From a virus (lineage: Duplodnaviria; Heunggongvirae; Uroviricota; Caudoviricetes), in IMG/VR virus record IMGVR_UViG_2548876935_000017: 9,690 bases of DNA, one strand, 5' to 3'. Numbering within the stretch: the first letter of the stretch is position 1; the number at the start of each line of letters is the position of its first letter. A program made the translations under genes and the position numbers. Under the pieces are notes generated by a model, which saw nothing but the letters and a program-made list of their open reading frames with translations, had not been told where the DNA came from and did no database searches. Shown here piece after piece: positions 1-8,787 of the stretch.

Positions 1-117
1 GAGGAACTGGCGCAATATAATTTGTGGCTGGATTATCTGGACGCACTGGAACTGGTTGATACCTCCAGTGCTCCAGATATTGAATGGCCTACGCCTCCGG
101 CAGTTCAGGCCAGATGA
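1..117 (+). CDS. Tail fibre assembly protein (Tfa/gpG-like), 3' end only; 5' part off-window
   Basis: Frame 1 is open from base 1 to TGA at 115-117 and encodes ...LWLDYLDALELVDTSSAPDIEWPTPPAVQAR. This is clearly paralogous to the C-terminus of the minus-strand Tfa (…AVLDYIDAVTATDTSTAPNVIWPELPEA), sharing LDY-DA, DTS-AP and WP--P. Confidence 0.6.
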   Translation, partial: EELAQYNLWLDYLDALELVDTSSAPDIEWPTPPAVQAR

Positions 118-694
118 CATTCGGCGCGGTGCTGGTATCTGTTGCCGTCACTGCGTCAATGTAATCCAGCACAGCATTAAGTCGGGTTGTTTCTGCCTGC
201 GTCAGCTTCCGCCCGGCCTGTAATTTCAGTTGAATCAGACTGATGGAAGCCATTGCAGCATCAATCAGCGACTGGCGCTGTGCTTCTGCCGCGTCTACTG
301 CGGCACTATGCTGTGCCTCAGTATCTGTCACCCATTTCTCACCATCCCATTTATCGTATGGCGTTAACGGGACGATAGTGGTTGTATTTTCAGGGTAATC
401 ACCCGGAGCTGTGATTTCTTTTGATTCTCCCGTTTCGGTGTTATAGACAACTTCACCGCGATGGTCTGGCACATATTCCCATGAGTTTAAATCTGCCGAA
501 CGGCAGATTGCATAACCAACCTTATGTGTGCCAGGAGCATCTAAACAGGAATATGCAGGGATACCGACACCCACAGCAAGATATTCAGTTGATGCAGAAA
601 TATACTCCCGTGTCTCACTGTCATAGTTATAAACGGTAATCTCTCCTGCCTTTGTGGCAATAAATTTATTATTTAAGATGGCGTTATACATCAT
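89..694 (-). CDS. Tail fibre assembly protein, alternative copy (Tfa') carried in the invertible segment
   Basis: 201-aa ORF of typical Tfa size with the conserved C-terminal WPELP motif; its start overlaps the stop of the upstream fibre ORF (ATGA at 691-694); convergent with the + strand tfa 3' end. Confidence 0.85.
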   Translation of the reverse strand: MMYNAILNNKFIATKAGEITVYNYDSETREYISASTEYLAVGVGIPAYSCLDAPGTHKVGYAICRSADLNSWEYVPDHRGEVVYNTETGESKEITAPGDYPENTTTIVPLTPYDKWDGEKWVTDTEAQHSAAVDAAEAQRQSLIDAAMASISLIQLKLQAGRKLTQAETTRLNAVLDYIDAVTATDTSTAPNVIWPELPEA

Positions 695-1269
695 GCAGCC
701 CTCACAATGTAATTAAATGAAATATTACGTGGGCGTGTCTCTGCTGCACCGACAATACTGGTACTCAACCCCGTTGCCGTTCGTTTGTTATTTTTATTTC
801 CTTCAATCAGACAGTTGTAATCATCATTACCAATTAACGAATTGGTGGCATCAATACTGTCCGGGGACAAGGCATTAGTTGTGGAACTTAAAGTCAGCAT
901 CTCGTCTGAACTTGGAAGATTTTTTAATGGTGTTTCATTGCGTGAAATACCCGCGTAAAAAAAGGACTCATGCCTGTGAGCTTCAAAAGAGTCATTCTGA
1001 AGACTTAGCAAGGCTCGCCCCGCATCCACTCCACGTCCATCATCCCAGCCACGAATAAATTCACCGCGTAAATCAGGCAATTTATTGGTCGGGTAAGCCT
1101 TTGTCAGTTCCGGGTATTCTTCAGCAGAAAAAGCCGCACCATTGCATTTCAGCCAGCCTGTTGGCGGTGTGGCTGAAGGCCATGGAACAGGCACACCAAC
1201 AGGTAATGCAGAGCCTTCTCCCAAACCAACGTTTATGAAAATGCAGAGATAACGGCTAACTGGCATCAT
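691..1269 (-). CDS. Alternative tail-fibre C-terminal (receptor-binding) segment, silent orientation. The ATG at 1269 is probably not a real start; in vivo this segment would be fused to the constant fibre N-terminus after inversion
   Basis: 192-aa ORF immediately upstream of and coupled to tfa'; sequence of tail-fibre distal-domain type (…PVPWPSATPPTGWLKCNGAAFSAEEYPELTKAYP…LPDLRGEFIRGWDDGRGVD…); lies between tfa' and the invertase gene, as S'v does in Mu/P1/e14 segments. Confidence 0.7.
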   Translation of the reverse strand: MMPVSRYLCIFINVGLGEGSALPVGVPVPWPSATPPTGWLKCNGAAFSAEEYPELTKAYPTNKLPDLRGEFIRGWDDGRGVDAGRALLSLQNDSFEAHRHESFFYAGISRNETPLKNLPSSDEMLTLSSTTNALSPDSIDATNSLIGNDDYNCLIEGNKNNKRTATGLSTSIVGAAETRPRNISFNYIVRAA

Positions 1270-1295
1270 CTCCGGTTTTTATTCAGGGGATCCAT
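1255..1295. other. Candidate invertase crossover site (hix/gix/cix-like), right-hand copy
   Basis: Position between the 5' end of the minus-strand fibre cassette and the invertase start; GGTTTTTATTCA at 1274-1285 resembles the hix half-site GGTTTTTGATAA. The other half-site is a poor match. Confidence 0.3.
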
Positions 1296-1296
1296 C

Positions 1297-1890
1297 ATGC
1301 TTATTGGCTATGTCCGCGTATCAACAAATGACCAGAACACGGAATTGCAGCGTAATGCGCTGGAGTGTGCAGGATGTGAGCTGATTTTTGAGGATAAAAT
1401 CAGCGGCACTAAGTCCGATCGACCGGGACTAAAAAAACTGCTCAGAACATTATCAGCAGGTGACACTCTGGTAGTCTGGAAGCTGGACAGGCTGGGGCGT
1501 AGTATGCGGCATCTGGTCATTCTGGTTGAGGAACTGCGCGAACGCGGTGTTAATTTTCGCAGCCTGACGGATGCCATTGATACCAGCACGCCGATGGGGC
1601 GTTTTTTCTTTCATGTGATGGGTGCCCTGGCTGAAATGGAGCGAGAACTTATTGTCGAGCGGACACGCGCCGGACTGGAAGCGGCCAGAGCCAAAGGTCG
1701 TATTGGTGGCAGACGTCCGAAACTCACCGCGAGTGAGTGGGAGCAGGCCGGGCGGTTGCTGGCTGCGGGGGAATCTCGTCAACGCGTGGCACTGATTTTT
1801 GATATTGGTCTGTCCACGCTCTATAAAAAATTTCCCTCATCAGTGACAAAGAATAAATTGTGTCATCCCTTAGCCAACCGGGACAAATAG
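1297..1890 (+). CDS. Serine recombinase DNA invertase (Hin/Gin/Pin/Cin family)
   Basis: 197-aa ORF; N-terminus MLIGYVRVSTNDQ with the catalytic Ser in GYVRVSTNDQ; internal GRIGGRRPKL and C-terminal helix-turn-helix …LSTLYKK; strong resemblance to Pin/Gin as I remember them; RBS GGGGA upstream. Confidence 0.9.
   Translation: MLIGYVRVSTNDQNTELQRNALECAGCELIFEDKISGTKSDRPGLKKLLRTLSAGDTLVVWKLDRLGRSMRHLVILVEELRERGVNFRSLTDAIDTSTPMGRFFFHVMGALAEMERELIVERTRAGLEAARAKGRIGGRRPKLTASEWEQAGRLLAAGESRQRVALIFDIGLSTLYKKFPSSVTKNKLCHPLANRDK
1380..1404. promoter_or_regulatory. Perfect 9-bp inverted repeat (GCTGATTTT-N7-AAAATCAGC) inside the invertase 5' coding region; candidate part of a Fis-dependent recombinational enhancer
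   Basis: Read directly from sequence. In Hin/Gin/Cin systems the enhancer lies within the first ~100-200 bp of the invertase gene; this repeat is 84-108 nt into the ORF. Confidence 0.25.
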
Positions 1891-1949
1891 CCTGACATCT
1901 CCGGCACAACTGAAAATACCACTCACCCATTAACCACGGAGTTAAACGG

Positions 1950-3140
1950 ATGAGTGACTATCATCACGGCGTGCAGGTGCTGGAGATTAACGACGGCACC
2001 CGCGTCATTTCCACCGTATCCACTGCCATTGTCGGCATGGTCTGCACGGCCAGCGATGCGGATGCGGAAACCTTTCCCCTCAATAAACCTGTGCTGATTA
2101 CCAATGTGCAGAGCGCAATTGCAAAGGCCGGTAAAAAAGGCACGCTGGCGGCGTCGCTGCAGGCCATCGCCGACCAGTCAAAACCGGTCACCGTTGTTGT
2201 GCGCGTGGAAGACGGCACCGGCGACGACGAGGAAACGAAACTTGCGCAGACCGTTTCCAATATCATCGGCACCACCGACGAAAACGGTCAGTACACCGGA
2301 CTGAAAGCCCTGCTGGCGGCGGAGTCAGTAACCGGTGTTAAACCGCGTATTCTCGGCGTGCCGGGACTGGACACCAAAGAGGTGGCTGTTGCACTGGCAT
2401 CAGTCTGTCAGAAGCTGCGCGCTTTCGGGTATATCAGCGCATGGGGCTGTAAAACCATTTCCGAGGTGAAAGCCTACCGCCAGAATTTCAGCCAGCGTGA
2501 GCTGATGGTCATCTGGCCGGATTTCCTCGCATGGGATACGGTCAGCAGCACCACCGCCACCGCGTATGCCACCGCCCGTGCGCTGGGGCTGCGTGCTAAA
2601 ATCGACCAGGAGCAGGGCTGGCATAAAACGTTGTCCAACGTCGGGGTAAATGGTGTTACCGGCATCAGCGCATCTGTATTCTGGGATTTGCAGGAGTCCG
2701 GCACCGATGCTGACCTGCTGAATGAGTCAGGCGTCACAACGCTGATTCGCCGTGACGGTTTCCGCTTCTGGGGTAACCGTACCTGCTCTGATGACCCGCT
2801 GTTCCTCTTTGAAAACTACACCCGCACCGCGCAGGTACTGGCCGACACGATGGCTGAGGCGCACATGTGGGCGGTGGACAAGCCCATCACCGCAACGCTG
2901 ATTCGCGACATCGTTGACGGCATCAATGCCAAATTCCGTGAGCTGAAAACAAACGGTTATATCGTGGATGCGACCTGCTGGTTCAGCGAAGAATCCAACG
3001 ATGCGGAAACCCTCAAGGCCGGAAAACTGTATATCGACTACGACTATACACCGGTGCCTCCTCTCGAAAACCTGACCCTGCGCCAGCGTATTACCGATAA
3101 ATACCTGGCAAATCTGGTCACCTCGGTTAACAGCAATTAA
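1950..3140 (+). CDS. FI: Contractile tail sheath protein (P2 gpFI-like)
   Basis: 396-aa ORF, RBS GGAG upstream; size and sequence consistent with P2 FI; followed by the tube gene. Confidence 0.9.
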   Translation: MSDYHHGVQVLEINDGTRVISTVSTAIVGMVCTASDADAETFPLNKPVLITNVQSAIAKAGKKGTLAASLQAIADQSKPVTVVVRVEDGTGDDEETKLAQTVSNIIGTTDENGQYTGLKALLAAESVTGVKPRILGVPGLDTKEVAVALASVCQKLRAFGYISAWGCKTISEVKAYRQNFSQRELMVIWPDFLAWDTVSSTTATAYATARALGLRAKIDQEQGWHKTLSNVGVNGVTGISASVFWDLQESGTDADLLNESGVTTLIRRDGFRFWGNRTCSDDPLFLFENYTRTAQVLADTMAEAHMWAVDKPITATLIRDIVDGINAKFRELKTNGYIVDATCWFSEESNDAETLKAGKLYIDYDYTPVPPLENLTLRQRITDKYLANLVTSVNSN

Positions 3141-3152
3141 GGAGCCTGACCG

Positions 3153-3671
3153 ATGGCAATGCCGCGCAAACTCAAGTTAATGAACGTCTTTCTGAACGGC
3201 TACAGCTATCAGGGCGTTGCAAAGTCCGTCACGCTGCCAAAACTGACCCGTAAACTCGAAAACTATCGCGGTGCGGGGATGAACGGCAGCGCACCGGTAG
3301 ACCTCGGCCTTGATGACGATGCGCTGTCAATGGAGTGGTCGCTCGGTGGCTTCCCGGATTCGGTTATCTGGGAGCTTTACGCCGCAACCGGTGTGGATGC
3401 CGTGCCGATTCGTTTTGCAGGCTCTTACCAGCGCGACGATACCGGCGAAACGGTGGCCGTCGAAGTGGTCATGCGTGGACGTCAGAAAGAAATCGACACC
3501 GGCGAGGGTAAACAGGGAGAAGACACTGAGTCGAAAATCTCCGTGGTCTGCACCTATTTCCGGCTGACGATGGACGGTAAGGAGCTGGTCGAAATTGACA
3601 CCATCAACATGATTGAGAAGGTGAACGGCGTCGACCGGCTGGAGCAACACCGCCGCAATATCGGCCTGTAA
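3153..3671 (+). CDS. FII: Tail tube protein (P2 gpFII-like)
   Basis: 172-aa ORF 12 bp after FI, RBS GGAGCC; P2 FII-like size and position. Confidence 0.9.
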   Translation: MAMPRKLKLMNVFLNGYSYQGVAKSVTLPKLTRKLENYRGAGMNGSAPVDLGLDDDALSMEWSLGGFPDSVIWELYAATGVDAVPIRFAGSYQRDDTGETVAVEVVMRGRQKEIDTGEGKQGEDTESKISVVCTYFRLTMDGKELVEIDTINMIEKVNGVDRLEQHRRNIGL

Positions 3672-3678
3672 TTTTCAT

Positions 3679-3699
3679 CCGGTCAGTCAGGCTGACCGG
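3679..3699 (+). other. Intergenic stem-loop (8-bp perfect stem CCGGTCAG / CTGACCGG, 5-nt loop) between FII and E, without a U-tract
   Basis: Read directly from sequence. Confidence 0.4.
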
Positions 3700-3727
3700 T
3701 TAACCCCGATTCAGAAGTGAGAAAACC

Positions 3728-4003
3728 ATGAACAAAGAAAATGTCATTATCCTGGACAATCCGGTTAAACGTGGTGAGCAGGTTATCGAACAGGTCACGC
3801 TGATGAAACCCAATGCAGGGACGCTGCGCGGTGTCAGTCTGGCTGCGGTCGCAAACTCCGAAGTCGATGCACTGATTAAAGTGCTGCCGCGCATGACGGC
3901 ACCGATGCTGACCGAGCAGGAGGTCGCCGCGCTGGAACTGCCTGACCTTGTGGCGCTGGCCGGTAAGGTGGTCGGTTTTTTGTCGCCGAACTCGGTGCAG
4001 TAA
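3728..4003 (+). CDS. E: Tail assembly chaperone gpE (P2 E-like)
   Basis: 91-aa ORF with RBS GAGAAAA upstream; position between the tube and tape-measure genes; contains the T6G slippery site near its 3' end. Confidence 0.85.
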   Translation: MNKENVIILDNPVKRGEQVIEQVTLMKPNAGTLRGVSLAAVANSEVDALIKVLPRMTAPMLTEQEVAALELPDLVALAGKVVGFLSPNSVQ

Positions 4004-4155
4004 CGTTCCCGAAAAATCTGTCGGTCGATGACCTGATGGCGGATGTGGCAGTGATATTTCACTGGCCGCCATCAGAACTGTATCCCATGAGCCTGACCGA
4101 ACTCATCACATGGCGCGAAAAGGCGCTCCGGCGAAGCGGAAACACGAATGAGTAA
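3728..4155 (+). CDS. E+E': gpE+E' frameshift fusion: -1 programmed ribosomal frameshift at the slippery heptamer 3976-3982, extension terminating at TAA 4153-4155
   Basis: In E frame the codons are GGT TTT TTG (3974-3982). The -1 frame is open from the slip site and reads …FFVAELGAVTFPKNLSVDDLMADVAVIFHWPPSELYPMSLTELITWREKALRRSGNTNE*, overlapping the start of T as in P2. Confidence 0.7.
3976..3982 (+). other. Slippery heptamer T TTT TTG for the E/E' -1 frameshift
   Basis: Read directly from sequence; same heptamer class as the P2 E/E' site. Confidence 0.7.
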
Positions 4156-6595
4156 CAATGTAAAATTACAGGTATTGCTCAGGGCTGTTGACCAGGCATC
4201 CCGCCCGTTTAAATCCATCCGCACAGCGAGTAAGTCGCTGTCGGGGGATATCCGGGAAACACAAAAATCACTACGCGAGCTGAACGGTCACGCATCCCGT
4301 ATTGAGGGATTCCGCAAGACCAGCGCACAGCTCGCCGTGACTGGTCATGCACTTGAAAAGGCACGGCAGGAGGCCGAAGCCCTTGCCACACAGTTTAAAA
4401 ACACCGAACGTCCGACCCGTGCTCAGGCGAAAGTGCTGGAATCAGCAAAGCGAGCGGCGGAAGACTTACAGGCGAAATATAACCGCCTGACGGATTCCGT
4501 TAAACGCCAGCAGCGGGAACTGGCCGCTGTGGGAATTAATACCCGCAATCTTGCACATGATGAGCAGGGGCTGAAAAACCGTATCAGTGAAACCACCGCA
4601 CAGCTTAACCGTCAGCGCGACGCACTGGCGCGTGTCAGTGCACAACAGGCAAAACTTAACGCAGTCAAACAGCGTTATCAGGCCGGAAAAGAACTGGCAG
4701 GAAATATGGCCTCAGTGGGCGCTGCCGGTGTGGGGATTGCTGCTGCGGGAACGATGGCCGGAGTTAAGCTGCTGATGCCCGGTTATGAGTTTGCGCAGAA
4801 AAACTCAGAATTGCAGGCTGTGCTCGGTGTGGCAAAAGACTCCGCCGAAATGGCCGCACTACGCAAGCAGGCGCGCCAGCTCGGTGACAATACCGCCGCC
4901 TCAGCGGATGATGCGGCCGGTGCGCAGATTATCATTGCGAAAGCGGGTGGAGATGTTGATGCCATTCAGGCGGCAACGCCGGTCACGCTGAACATGGCGC
5001 TGGCGAACCGTCGCACGATGGAAGAAAACGCCGCCCTGCTGATGGGGATGAAATCTGCCTTTCAGCTTTCAAACGATAAGGTCGCTCATATCGGGGATGT
5101 TCTCTCCATGACGATGAACAAAACCGCCGCTGATTTTGACGGCATGAGCGATGCGCTGACCTATGCCGCACCAGTGGCAAAAAATGCCGGTGTCAGCATT
5201 GAAGAAACTGCCGCAATGGTCGGGGCGCTGCATGATGCAAAAATCACAGGCTCAATGGCGGGGACGGGAAGCCGTGCCGTGTTAAGTCGCCTGCAGGCAC
5301 CGACTGGAAAAGCATGGGATGCACTCAAAGAGCTTGGCGTGAAAACCTCAGACAGTAAGGGAAACACCCGACCAGTATTTACCATTCTGAAAGAAATGCA
5401 GGCCAGCTTTGAGAAAAACCGGCTCGGTACTGCCCAGCAGGCCGAATACATGAAAACCATTTTCGGGGAGGAGGCCAGCTCAGCCGCCGCTGTGCTGATG
5501 ACTGCCGCGTCAACCGGAAAGCTGGACAAACTGACCGCTGCGTTTAAAGCCTCAGACGGGAAGACCGCAGAGCTGGTAAATATCATGCAGGACAACCTCG
5601 GCGGTGACTTTAAGGAGTTTCAGTCCGCTTATGAGGCGGTGGGGACAGACCTGTTTGACCAGCAGGAAGGCGCACTGCGTAAGCTCACGCAGACGGCCAC
5701 AAAGTATGTGTTAAAACTCGACGGCTGGATCCAGAAAAACAAATCACTGGCGTCAACCATCGGCCTCATTGTCGGTGGTGCACTGGCGCTGACTGCTGTC
5801 ATCGGTGCCATTGGCCTCGTAGCCTGGCCGGTTATCACTGGCATCAATGCCATCATCGCGGCAGCAGGCGCAATGGGGGCAATCTTCACGACGGTTGGCA
5901 GTGCTGTTATGACGGCCATCGGGGCGATTAGCTGGCCGGTTGTGGCCGTGGTGGCCGCCATTGTCGCCGGGGCGTTACTTATCCATAAATACTGGGAGCC
6001 TGTCAGCGCATTCTTTGGCGGTGTGGTGGAAGGGCTGAAAGCGGCATTTGCGCCGGTGGGAGAACTGTTCACGCCACTGAAGCCGGTGTTTGACTGGCTG
6101 GGCGAAAAGTTACAGGCCGCGTGGCAGTGGTTTAAAAACCTGATTGCCCCGGTCAAAGCCACACAGGACACCCTGAACCGTTGCCGTGACACGGGCGTCA
6201 TGTTCGGGCAGGCACTGGCTGACGCGCTGATGCTGCCGCTTAATGCGTTCAACAAACTGCGCAGCGGTATTGACTGGGTACTGGAAAAACTCGGTGTTAT
6301 CAACAAAGAGTCAGACACACTTGACCAGACCGCAGCCAGAACTCATGCCGCCACGTATGGCACCGGTGGTTATATTCCGGCGATCAGCTCTTATGCAGGC
6401 TATCAGGCTTATCAGCCGGTTACGGCACCGGCTGGCCGCTCTTATGTGGACCAGAGTAAAAACGAATATCACATCAACCTGACGGGCGGTACTGCGCCGG
6501 GAACACAGCTTGACCGCCAGTTACAGGATGCGCTCGAAAAATACGAGCGGGATAAACGTGCGCGCGCCCGTGCCAGCATGATGCATGACGGTTAA
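4148..6595 (+). CDS. T: Tail tape measure protein (P2 gpT-like)
   Basis: 815-aa ORF after E/E'; coiled-coil-like, Ala/Gln/Lys-rich N-terminal half and a long hydrophobic Gly/Ala-rich segment typical of tape measure proteins. Confidence 0.9.
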   Translation: MSNNVKLQVLLRAVDQASRPFKSIRTASKSLSGDIRETQKSLRELNGHASRIEGFRKTSAQLAVTGHALEKARQEAEALATQFKNTERPTRAQAKVLESAKRAAEDLQAKYNRLTDSVKRQQRELAAVGINTRNLAHDEQGLKNRISETTAQLNRQRDALARVSAQQAKLNAVKQRYQAGKELAGNMASVGAAGVGIAAAGTMAGVKLLMPGYEFAQKNSELQAVLGVAKDSAEMAALRKQARQLGDNTAASADDAAGAQIIIAKAGGDVDAIQAATPVTLNMALANRRTMEENAALLMGMKSAFQLSNDKVAHIGDVLSMTMNKTAADFDGMSDALTYAAPVAKNAGVSIEETAAMVGALHDAKITGSMAGTGSRAVLSRLQAPTGKAWDALKELGVKTSDSKGNTRPVFTILKEMQASFEKNRLGTAQQAEYMKTIFGEEASSAAAVLMTAASTGKLDKLTAAFKASDGKTAELVNIMQDNLGGDFKEFQSAYEAVGTDLFDQQEGALRKLTQTATKYVLKLDGWIQKNKSLASTIGLIVGGALALTAVIGAIGLVAWPVITGINAIIAAAGAMGAIFTTVGSAVMTAIGAISWPVVAVVAAIVAGALLIHKYWEPVSAFFGGVVEGLKAAFAPVGELFTPLKPVFDWLGEKLQAAWQWFKNLIAPVKATQDTLNRCRDTGVMFGQALADALMLPLNAFNKLRSGIDWVLEKLGVINKESDTLDQTAARTHAATYGTGGYIPAISSYAGYQAYQPVTAPAGRSYVDQSKNEYHINLTGGTAPGTQLDRQLQDALEKYERDKRARARASMMHDG

Positions 6596-6609
6596 GGAGG
6601 TGACGAAAA

Positions 6610-7089
6610 ATGATGCTCGCGTTAGGTATGTTTGTTTTTATGCGCCAGACGCTGCCACACCAGACCATGCAGCGTGAATCAGATTATCGCTGGCCGTCAA
6701 ATTCCCGTATCGGTAAACGGGATGCCTTTCAGTTTCTCGGTGTGGGTGAGGAAAACATGACGCTTGCCGGTGTGCTTTATCCCGAACTGACCGGCGGCAA
6801 GCTGACGATGACCACGCTCAGACTGATGGCAGAGGAAGGCCGGGCGTGGCCGTTGCTGGATGGCACCGGCATGATTTACGGCATGTATGTCATCAGCAGG
6901 GTGAGTGAAACAGGGAGTATTTTCTTTGCAGACGGCACACCCCGGAAAATTGATTTTACGCTGTCGCTCACCCGCGTTGATGAATCACTGGCCGCGCTTT
7001 ATGGCGATATCGGTAAACAGGCGGAATCGCTCATCGGTAAGGCTGGCAGTATGGCGACTAAATTCACGGGTATGACGGAGGCGGGATAA
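6610..7089 (+). CDS. U: Tail protein gpU-like
   Basis: 159-aa ORF with RBS GGAGG (6596-6600); its stop overlaps the D start (TAATG). Confidence 0.85.
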   Translation: MMLALGMFVFMRQTLPHQTMQRESDYRWPSNSRIGKRDAFQFLGVGEENMTLAGVLYPELTGGKLTMTTLRLMAEEGRAWPLLDGTGMIYGMYVISRVSETGSIFFADGTPRKIDFTLSLTRVDESLAALYGDIGKQAESLIGKAGSMATKFTGMTEAG

Positions 7090-8252
7090 TGCTGGATGCG
7101 CTGACATTTGATGCAGGCAGTACGCTGACGCCGGATTACATGCTGATGCTCGACAGCAGGGATATTACCGGCAATATCAGCGACCGTCTGATGAGCATGA
7201 CCCTGACGGATAATCGGGGCTTTGAGGCTGACCAGCTTGATATTGAACTGAACGACGCCGACGGGCAGGTCGGGCTACCGATTCGCGGCGCTGTCCTGAC
7301 GGTGTATATCGGCTGGAAAGGTTTTGCCCTGGTATGCAAAGGGAAATTTACCGTTGATGAGGTTGAACACCGGGGCGCGCCGGATGTGGTTACCATCCGC
7401 GCCCGGAGTGCAGATTTTCGCGGGACGCTCAATTCCCGCCGGGAAGGCTCCTGGCATGACACCACGCTCGGTGCGATTGTTGAGGCGATAGCCACCCGTA
7501 ACAGGCTGGAAGCCAGTGTCGCTCCGTCACTGGCCGGAATTAAAATCCCGCACATCGACCAGTCGCAGGAGTCTGATGCAAAATTCCTGACCCGCCTTGC
7601 TGAACGCAACGGCGGTGAGGTGTCGGTAAAAATGGGAAAACTGTTGTTTCTCAAAGCGGGGCAGGGGGTGACGTCAAGCGGTAAAAAAATCCCGCAGATT
7701 ACCATCACCCGCAGCGACGGCGACCGTCATCATTTTGCGATTGCTGACCGTGGAGCCTATACCGGCGTAACGGCAAAGTGGCTTCACACCAAAGACCCGA
7801 AGCCGCAAAAGCAGAAGGTAAAACTGAAACGCAAAAAGAAAGAAAAACACCTGCGCGCACTGGAGCACCCGAAAGCGAAACCAGTCACGCAGAAGAAAGC
7901 GCCAAAAGTACCGGAAGCGCGCGAAGGTGAATACATGGCCGGTGAGGCTGACAACGTTTTTGCCCTGACCACGGTATATGCCACGAAAGCACAGGCCATG
8001 CGTGCCGCTCAGGCGAAGTGGGATAAACTGCAACGGGGCGTTGCGGAGTTCTCCATCAGCCTGGCTACCGGTCGTGCAGATATTTACACGGAAACGCCGG
8101 TCAAAGTGTCAGGCTTTAAGCGTGTCATAGACGAGCAGGACTGGACAATCACTAAGGTGACACATTTTCTGAATAATAGCGGCTTCACGACGTCCCTGGA
8201 GCTTGAGGTCAGGCTTTCTGATGTGGAGTACGAAACAGAAGATTATGAGTGA
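7089..8252 (+). CDS. D: Tail/baseplate protein gpD (late control gene D family)
   Basis: 387-aa ORF translationally coupled to U; size and position match P2 D. Confidence 0.88.
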   Translation: MLDALTFDAGSTLTPDYMLMLDSRDITGNISDRLMSMTLTDNRGFEADQLDIELNDADGQVGLPIRGAVLTVYIGWKGFALVCKGKFTVDEVEHRGAPDVVTIRARSADFRGTLNSRREGSWHDTTLGAIVEAIATRNRLEASVAPSLAGIKIPHIDQSQESDAKFLTRLAERNGGEVSVKMGKLLFLKAGQGVTSSGKKIPQITITRSDGDRHHFAIADRGAYTGVTAKWLHTKDPKPQKQKVKLKRKKKEKHLRALEHPKAKPVTQKKAPKVPEAREGEYMAGEADNVFALTTVYATKAQAMRAAQAKWDKLQRGVAEFSISLATGRADIYTETPVKVSGFKRVIDEQDWTITKVTHFLNNSGFTTSLELEVRLSDVEYETEDYE

Positions 8253-8333
8253 TGTCTTTTGTTTATCTGTTTGTTTTATAAGGATAAATTAACTAAAATG
8301 GCACTATCAACAAAACCGGAAGAGGTGCTCGCG

Positions 8334-8552
8334 ATGTTTCATTGTCCTTTATGCCAGCATGCCGCACATGCGCGTACAAGCCGCTATATCACTGACACGA
8401 CAAAAGAGCGTTATCACCAGTGCCAGAACGTGAATTGCAGCGCCACGTTCATCACTTATGAGTCGGTACAGCGATACATCGTGAAGCCGGGAGAAGTCCA
8501 CGCCGTGAGGCCGCACCCGTTGCCGTCAGGGCAGCAAATTATGTGGATGTGA
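8334..8552 (+). CDS. ogr: Late transcription activator Ogr (zinc-finger)
   Basis: 72-aa product starting MFHCPLCQHAAH… with a Cys-X2-Cys…Cys-X4-Cys motif (CPLC, CQNVNC). The ORF track begins at an upstream ATG (8259); the internal ATG at 8334 gives the canonical 72-aa Ogr. Confidence 0.85.
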   Translation: MFHCPLCQHAAHARTSRYITDTTKERYHQCQNVNCSATFITYESVQRYIVKPGEVHAVRPHPLPSGQQIMWM

Positions 8553-8562
8553 TCACAAAAAT

Positions 8563-8589
8563 AGCCCCTCAGTTGAGGGGCTTATTTAT
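8563..8589. terminator. Intrinsic terminator hairpin after ogr (AGCCCCTC-AGTT-GAGGGGCT, then TATTTAT); A-run on the 5' side makes it potentially bidirectional
   Basis: Read directly from sequence. Confidence 0.6.
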
Positions 8590-8679
8590 GGTCGATGTGG
8601 ACGCTATGTGGACAGTGGTTGACATAAATCCATTTATATCATCAGGTTAGGTGCTTTTTTGTGACACCATCCCTGTCTT

Positions 8680-8706
8680 CCCCCACATGATGTGGGGGTT
8701 TTTTTT
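8680..8706 (+). terminator. Strong rho-independent terminator (CCCCCACAT-G-ATGTGGGGG followed by T8)
   Basis: Read directly from sequence; GC-rich 9-bp stem plus U-tract, 81 bp upstream of the fieF start. Confidence 0.7.
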
Positions 8707-8732
8707 ATCCTCAATTTGCCTGCTGCTTAATG

Positions 8733-8761
8733 CATTGCAGATGATTTGCTTCCGTTATACT
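8733..8761 (+). promoter_or_regulatory. Candidate sigma70 promoter for fieF (-10 TATACT at 8756-8761; weak -35-like TTGCAG at 8735-8740)
   Basis: Hexamer inspection only; spacing is suboptimal. Confidence 0.3.
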
Positions 8762-8787
8762 AGCGTCAGTTGATAGCGGGAGTATTT

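Follow-up and report, generated by a model that had tools for sequence, protein, structure and literature searches.

Gene content of the window and identity of the cassette

The window, the whole stretch of 9,690 nucleotides analysed here, is the late-gene end of a P2-like prophage (Peduovirus) of E. coli, integrated next to the chromosomal gene fieF. Most of it is occupied by tail genes that read rightward, and the cassette with which we are concerned lies at its left edge, with the fibre region on one side and the sheath gene FI on the other (Table 1). The prophage is closed by the gene for the Ogr/OgrK zinc-finger late activator. A P2-like D-ogr end is found at the same fieF-proximal position in 691 of 5426 complete E. 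coli genomes, a frequency that points to a common P2-family attachment site. No RNA families were found in an Rfam scan of the whole window. The P2 late-promoter dyad TGT-N12-ACA occurs once, at 8607, and nowhere near the cassette; this count is not above chance.

Table 1. Features of the window, with coordinates counted from its first nucleotide
Feature	Position	Strand	Description
tfa, 3' end (currently expressed copy)	1..117	+	Pfam Caudo_TAP 3e-11
tfa'	89..694	-	TfaE-like tail fibre assembly chaperone, 201 aa; Pfam Caudo_TAP 3e-31
Cassette ORF	691..1269	-	192 aa
Invertible part of cassette	691..1228	-	codons 14-192 of the ORF (179 in-segment codons)
Conserved collar	1009-1230	-	part of cassette, aa 14-87
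Hypervariable distal core	745-1008	-	part of cassette, aa ~88-175
Conserved C-terminal strand			part of cassette, ETRPRNISFNYIVRAA
Crossover site	1216..1241		26-bp invertase site (pix/gix/cix type), TTCTCCCAAACC-AA-CGTTTATGAAAA; crossover dinucleotide 1228-1229
Fixed 5' extension of ORF	1229..1269	-	two in-frame ATGs (1269-1267, 1266-1264)
Invertase gene	1297..1890	+	serine DNA invertase, Din family (Pin/Gin/Cin/Hin), 197 aa
FI	1950-3140	rightward	tail sheath
FII	3153-3671	rightward	tube
E/E'		rightward	between FII and T
T	4148-6595	rightward	tape measure
U, D		rightward	after T, before ogr
ogr	8259-8552	+	late activator
Interval before fieF	8553-8769		~220 nt
fieF	8770 to window end		chromosomal gene

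To characterize the cassette, we compared its 192-aa translation with family and structure collections. It matched the Pfam Collar family (PF07484, E 6e-15, 55.3 bits with a cut-off of 24) and, weakly, the T4 short-fibre receptor-binding domain, and the PHROG 'tail collar fiber protein' was matched over the whole length (1e-73). The PDB entries matched were short tail fibres (9cuy, 7.5e-19, together with gp12 entries) and the tip of T4 gp37 (2XGF, E 1e-16). Fibre tips are trimers, and these structural matches at the level of sequence suffice to decide the fold class. The matches as a whole bear out the view, taken from the letters alone by the sequence-only reading, that the minus strand encodes a fibre domain here. 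In the 2XGF alignment residues 20-102 and 170-192 correspond to the two collar halves, the C-terminal return strand being present, and an HxH motif at residues 98-100 aligns with the HxH of gp37. In gp37 and gp12 this motif has a metal-binding role. The collar of the T4 gp37 tip and of gp12 (2XGF, 1OCY, 5IV5) is likewise built from an N-terminal stretch and the extreme C-terminal strand, but the insert between the two halves is much shorter in the cassette, at ~70–85 aa. The chaperones differ too: the cassette is folded by a Tfa protein (lambda gpK / Caudo_TAP), T4 fibres by gp38 or gp57. Because the chain of gp37 and gp12 runs out to the tip and then returns to the collar, the receptor-contacting residues of the cassette would probably lie within its hypervariable, AT-rich middle (aa ~88–175).

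The cassette is similar to e14 StfE (~55–58% identical overall), with a near-identical collar and C-terminal strand and a divergent core; its hypervariable core is a different allele from that of e14. The S and S' tips of Mu are unrelated (blastp E > 5), and a Mu-type tip was rejected on that basis. A tblastn search of 50,697 phage records gave no whole-tip match above 60% identity, and this exact tip allele came up solely in chromosomes of E. coli and in IMG/VR contigs (L091, L113, L149).

The cassette is followed by its cognate chaperone gene, tfa', with which it inverts. The start of tfa' overlaps the cassette stop (ATGA), so the two are translationally coupled, and its product is 90% identical to e14 TfaE. 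The plus-strand tfa, whose 3' end is colinear with nt 5680–6117 of the homologous locus of E. coli GPEC1035 (L001) and with the corresponding locus of E. coli SC477 (L004), is the partner of the active tip, which lies beyond the window. The two convergent genes overlap tail to tail by 29 nt (89–117), as they do in e14 (tfaP/tfaE) and GPEC1035, and their products, encoded on opposite strands, have a similar ...(I/V)(E/I)WP..P.. motif at the C-terminus.

On its other side the cassette adjoins the invertase gene. The product matched Pfam Resolvase (PF00239, 3e-52) and HTH_7 (PF02796, 1e-12) and the PHROG DNA invertase family (2e-100), and the catalytic Ser9 is present in the context GYVRVSTNDQ. 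It is 87% identical to e14 PinE, from which it differs by a C-terminus 13 aa longer, and 80% identical to Mu Gin. Over its first 240 nt, where a Fis-dependent recombinational enhancer (sis) would be expected, the gene closely resembles pinE and gin, and pattern matching picked out one Fis-consensus-like 15-mer (gene position 71–85) common to all three; it could assign no second Fis site at the expected spacing.

Crossover sites and inversion in related prophages

The 26-bp crossover site, TTCTCCCAAACCAACGTTTATGAAAA, occurs once in the window (0 copies expected by chance) and has exactly the sequence of the invertase-proximal site in the P segment of the E. coli K-12 element e14. According to the sequence-only reading the ATG at 1269 falls inside the crossover site. 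This is wrong: that ATG (1267–1269) is 25 nt outside the site and the second in-frame ATG 22 nt outside it, both in non-inverting DNA. It follows that only nt 691–1228 of the ORF can invert and that codons 1–13 belong to the fixed flank.

As no second site was found inside the window, even with up to 3 mismatches allowed, we sought the partner in homologous loci. Window positions 1–1950 are colinear with GPEC1035 at 97.5% identity and have matches of at least 80% coverage in 172 complete E. coli genomes. In GPEC1035 the sole long inverted repeat pairs the site with TTCTCACATACCTTGGTTTGGGAGAA (5317–5342), which lies in fibre gene H at codon 272 of 391; as an inverted repeat the two sites are 85% complementary. 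The left site, inverted and with the core TT/AA, is also present in E. coli SC455 (L003) and SC477, these three loci being 97–98% identical to the window. The two sites share one reading frame (..LGLGE..), and the fusion predicted when the constant part is linked to the window cassette at the central dinucleotide has an open frame.

We then built a synthetic query for the flipped junction that inversion should produce and compared it with the complete E. coli genomes. It was matched at 100% over 1001 nt in SC455 and with at least 80% coverage in 20 E. coli genomes. SC455 and SC477 are near-clonal sister isolates that carry the segment in opposite orientations: their flanks are 100% identical over 4342 and 3614 nt, and from one 26-bp site to the other the sequence of one isolate is exactly the reverse complement of that of its sister. 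The fibre gene of SC455 encodes 454 aa and is followed by tfaE on the same strand, and window residues 20–192 are identical to the C-terminus of this fibre at 173/173 positions. The other cassette, 'gp53-like', adjoins the invertase there and is presumably silent. This pair of isolates and the 454-aa fibre support the earlier proposal that inversion fuses the silent cassette to the constant fibre N-terminus. Both orientations were observed in relatives; the window holds the right site only, the constant N-terminus lying outside it. From relatives 97–100% identical to the window we infer that its own genome would have the left site and would form the same fusion.

The reading we favour, with a probability of roughly 0.9, is that the cassette is a spare fibre tip, flipped into fibre gene H by the adjoining invertase. 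The window would then contain the right half of a segment in the tail-fibre region that inverts between two states. Gene H, upstream of the window, would provide the constant, baseplate-attaching part, the N-terminal ~275 aa up to the 26-bp site, and two modules, each a tip with its Tfa, would lie tail to tail between this site and the inverted site of the window. Strand exchange by the invertase at the central dinucleotides would flip the ~1.9-kb segment. In the present orientation the cassette would point away from the late promoter and lack a fibre N-terminus; for these two reasons it should be absent from virions, and it is presumably silent. After inversion it would be joined in frame to the constant part and transcribed from the late operon together with tfa', and the host range would be expected to change.

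Start codons in the fixed flank

The main alternative is that the ORF is an independent gene, in which the ATGs at 1264–1269 give a free receptor-binding domain of 191/192 aa without a baseplate anchor. In a lysogen such a domain could mask receptors or exclude superinfecting phages, the role proposed for e14 StfE2, and this would be compatible with the cassette role. We consider the alternative improbable, but it has several points in its favour. Nearly all close relatives share the in-frame ATGATG, preceded here by GGAG (1273–1270); an ATG-CCA occurs at the same position in Mu and, as a start within the fixed flank, in e14; and in the NCBI PGAP annotation the homologous ORF is a CDS with the second ATG as its start. 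The claim that the domain has no convincing ribosome-binding site or start of its own therefore stands only in part: in-frame ATGs and a Shine-Dalgarno-like GGAG exist and PGAP calls a CDS, but the GGAG abuts the first ATG, and its spacing of 0 and 3 nt to the two ATGs is poor.

Experimental work on e14 bears on the same point. Kirigo et al. 2025 (PMC12529663) treat the homologous flank-initiated e14 ORFs as real, functional proteins. According to their report, plasmid-borne expression of StfE2, the ORF that runs from the flank start (the StfE start) into the StfP tip, prevents T2 adsorption, and inversion-locked cells resist T2. These results argue for a working start in the flank, but StfE itself, the equivalent of the window orientation, was 'not effective' in that study, and StfE2 was plasmid-made, the study giving no native promoter, transcript or translation start.

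Further evidence against an independent gene comes from the DNA around the start codons. A scan of positions 1–2000 detected no minus-strand sigma-70-like promoter upstream of the ORF, where the DNA is the antisense of the invertase gene; the sole minus-strand match sits inside the ORF (1 observed, 1.9 expected by chance). The flank peptide is not conserved, being MMPVSRYLC here and MPFACYFF in e14, with another start in Mu. A stop closes the flank frame at two loci (L101, L103) whose invertases are 97–98% identical to that of the window, and many distant loci have no in-frame start. Finally, the bases that are conserved, TGGCATNAT on the plus strand, fit a -10 element of the invertase promoter, a role that would explain the conservation of the flank without a coding function.

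In the fixed flank the plus strand reads TGGCATCAT (1261–1269), which is possibly the extended -10 element of the invertase promoter. We compared this region (window 1258–1296, plus strand) with two related loci (L005 4640–4685; L006 4550–4592). TGGCAT(C/G)AT, ~28 nt before the invertase start, is conserved at the window locus, in e14, in Mu and in more distant relatives; within the hexamer A2 and T6 alone never vary, a pattern consistent with an extended -10 element. Complementary to this element, on the minus strand, stand the 'start codons' of the silent ORF. A short hairpin and a T-run come after the element, and a scan flagged 1258–1277 as terminator-like.

A related proposal takes the flank ATG-CCA of the window locus, e14 and Mu to be a working start from which the invertase-proximal cassette is made at a low level in the lysogen. 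We regard this, too, as improbable. If it were true, the free, anchorless domain would mask surface receptors against superinfecting phages, and the switch would toggle the virion tip and a host-protective decoy at once.

The least probable reading, to which we give hardly any weight, is that the cassette is a non-functional piece of a fibre gene which earlier recombination left behind at a locus no longer able to invert: the K-12 RefSeq annotation does call the e14 homologue stfE a pseudogene and some relatives (L154 and L119 among them) have truncated cassettes, but here the 179 in-segment codons are intact and 100% identical to an expressed fibre C-terminus, the chaperone gene, site and invertase are all intact, and a prophage whose invertase is identical to that of the window at 193/197 positions is found in both orientations in near-clonal isolates (SC477 and SC455).

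Probable modular exchange and comparison with known switches

To follow the composition of the cassette, we compared its GC content with that of the tail genes. The invertible part (nt 691–1228) has a GC content of 0.459, whereas 538-nt windows in the tail genes (1950–8252) are all at or above 0.528 (mean 0.558, sd 0.015). The difference is concentrated in the hypervariable core, at 0.405 (tail-gene windows set beside this figure: mean 0.558 ± 0.025, minimum 0.49), while the conserved collar is at 0.53. The cassette is thus AT-richer than the tail genes, as had been noticed at the outset.

With the invertase as query we recovered ~160 loci. Across them the fixed flank and outer half-site are conserved, whereas the sequences immediately within the site sort into discrete classes. 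At least five classes of cassette occupy the invertase-proximal position in ~80 related loci: a collar type (starting GSALPVG), an AAKR(N/D)VGTG type, a GAPAIGVPFFWP type, a gp53-like LSLAGTASG type and a TIN type. The 22 cassettes of the collar class hardly differ over aa 11–85 and the last ~15 aa, whereas over residues ~88–175, which are hypervariable, the mean fraction identical to the window is 0.18–0.37 and there are many length variants. Stretches of the cassette and of tfa also occur at ~90% nucleotide identity in unrelated phages, among them HK97, Klebsiella phages and Salmonella phages, and these matches stop at 1229–1241, within the crossover site. Together with the hypervariable, low-GC core, the matches ending at the site give good support to the suggestion that the cassette is a horizontally exchanged receptor-recognition module. 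Some silent cassettes, such as those of L154 and L119 (65 and 22 codons), are cut short by a frameshift or stop; a cassette would be expected to tolerate such decay for as long as it stays in the unexpressed position.

The locus is very probably a standard Din-family invertible tail-fibre switch of the Mu G, P1 C and e14 P design. In the Mu G (Sc with Sv/U or Sv'/U', and Gin) and P1 C (Cin) segments a constant N-terminus is likewise combined with either of two tips, each with its chaperone, between 26-bp inverted sites, with the invertase gene just outside the segment. The segments of Mu and P1 are larger, at 3 kb and 4.2 kb, compared with ~1.9 kb at the window locus. The gene order of the Mu G segment is that of the window locus, and the silent ORF of Mu likewise runs a few codons past the segment boundary, the gene finder having extended it 29 nt beyond the segment; in the Mu record the equivalent ORF is described as 'carboxyl terminal end ... 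in G(-) phage' (S'). The e14 P segment has the same gene order and orientation (stfP-tfaP-tfaE-stfE-pinE). The elements that carry them differ, however, since the cassette belongs to a complete P2-like myovirus prophage beside fieF and e14 is a defective lambdoid.

Invertible fibre switches in P2-like prophages are already known from the literature and from annotated genomes. Escherichia phage pro483 matches 85% of window positions 1–1950 at 93% identity, and this phage and the P2-like prophages of EPEC E2348/69 share the same backbone and have the invertase in the same place, flanked by the tfa genes and the sheath gene FI. In pro483 the silent cassette is another allele of the collar class, ~60–63% identical to that of the window. 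Phase variation of the e14 and P2-like prophage fibre loci was demonstrated experimentally, by sequencing and PCR, by Goldberg et al. 2014 (PMC4272514); one EPEC locus in that study has three sites and four states, whereas a locus of the window type has two sites.

The importance of the window locus beyond correct annotation is therefore small. Its ORF is best described as an alternative, exon-like C-terminal cassette of gene H, and the label of a stand-alone 'phage tail protein', which annotated genomes already give it, is unsuitable. For host-range prediction or engineering it offers a clear example of a conserved collar scaffold that carries an ~85-aa hypervariable, AT-rich core and has a dedicated chaperone.

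Draft assemblies are prone to breaking at the crossover site. Six contigs end at or inside the 26-bp site, 73–84 nt upstream of the invertase start (L009, L011, L014, L017, L023, L128); contigs ending in this way come from several draft genomes (Citrobacter, Kluyvera, Photorhabdus) and include one IMG/VR viral contig. Such breaks are the signature that would be expected if mixed orientations in the sequenced culture broke the assembly. At one further locus, in E. coli ECMA0423 (L008), where the invertase is 84% identical to that of the window, the DNA ~40–60 nt before the invertase start has a run of 17 C, and no crossover site could be recognised upstream of the gene, which may reflect loss of the site or an assembly artefact. 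Elsewhere in the prophage of SC455 and SC477, between the tail-completion and baseplate V genes, we noted an opposite-strand gene for a 359-aa 'GTP pyrophosphokinase' (RelA/SpoT-like; L003 957–2036 and L004 1–864, both minus strand). GPEC1035 is without this gene, which looks like a moron, possibly of the anti-phage toxSAS/CapRel type.
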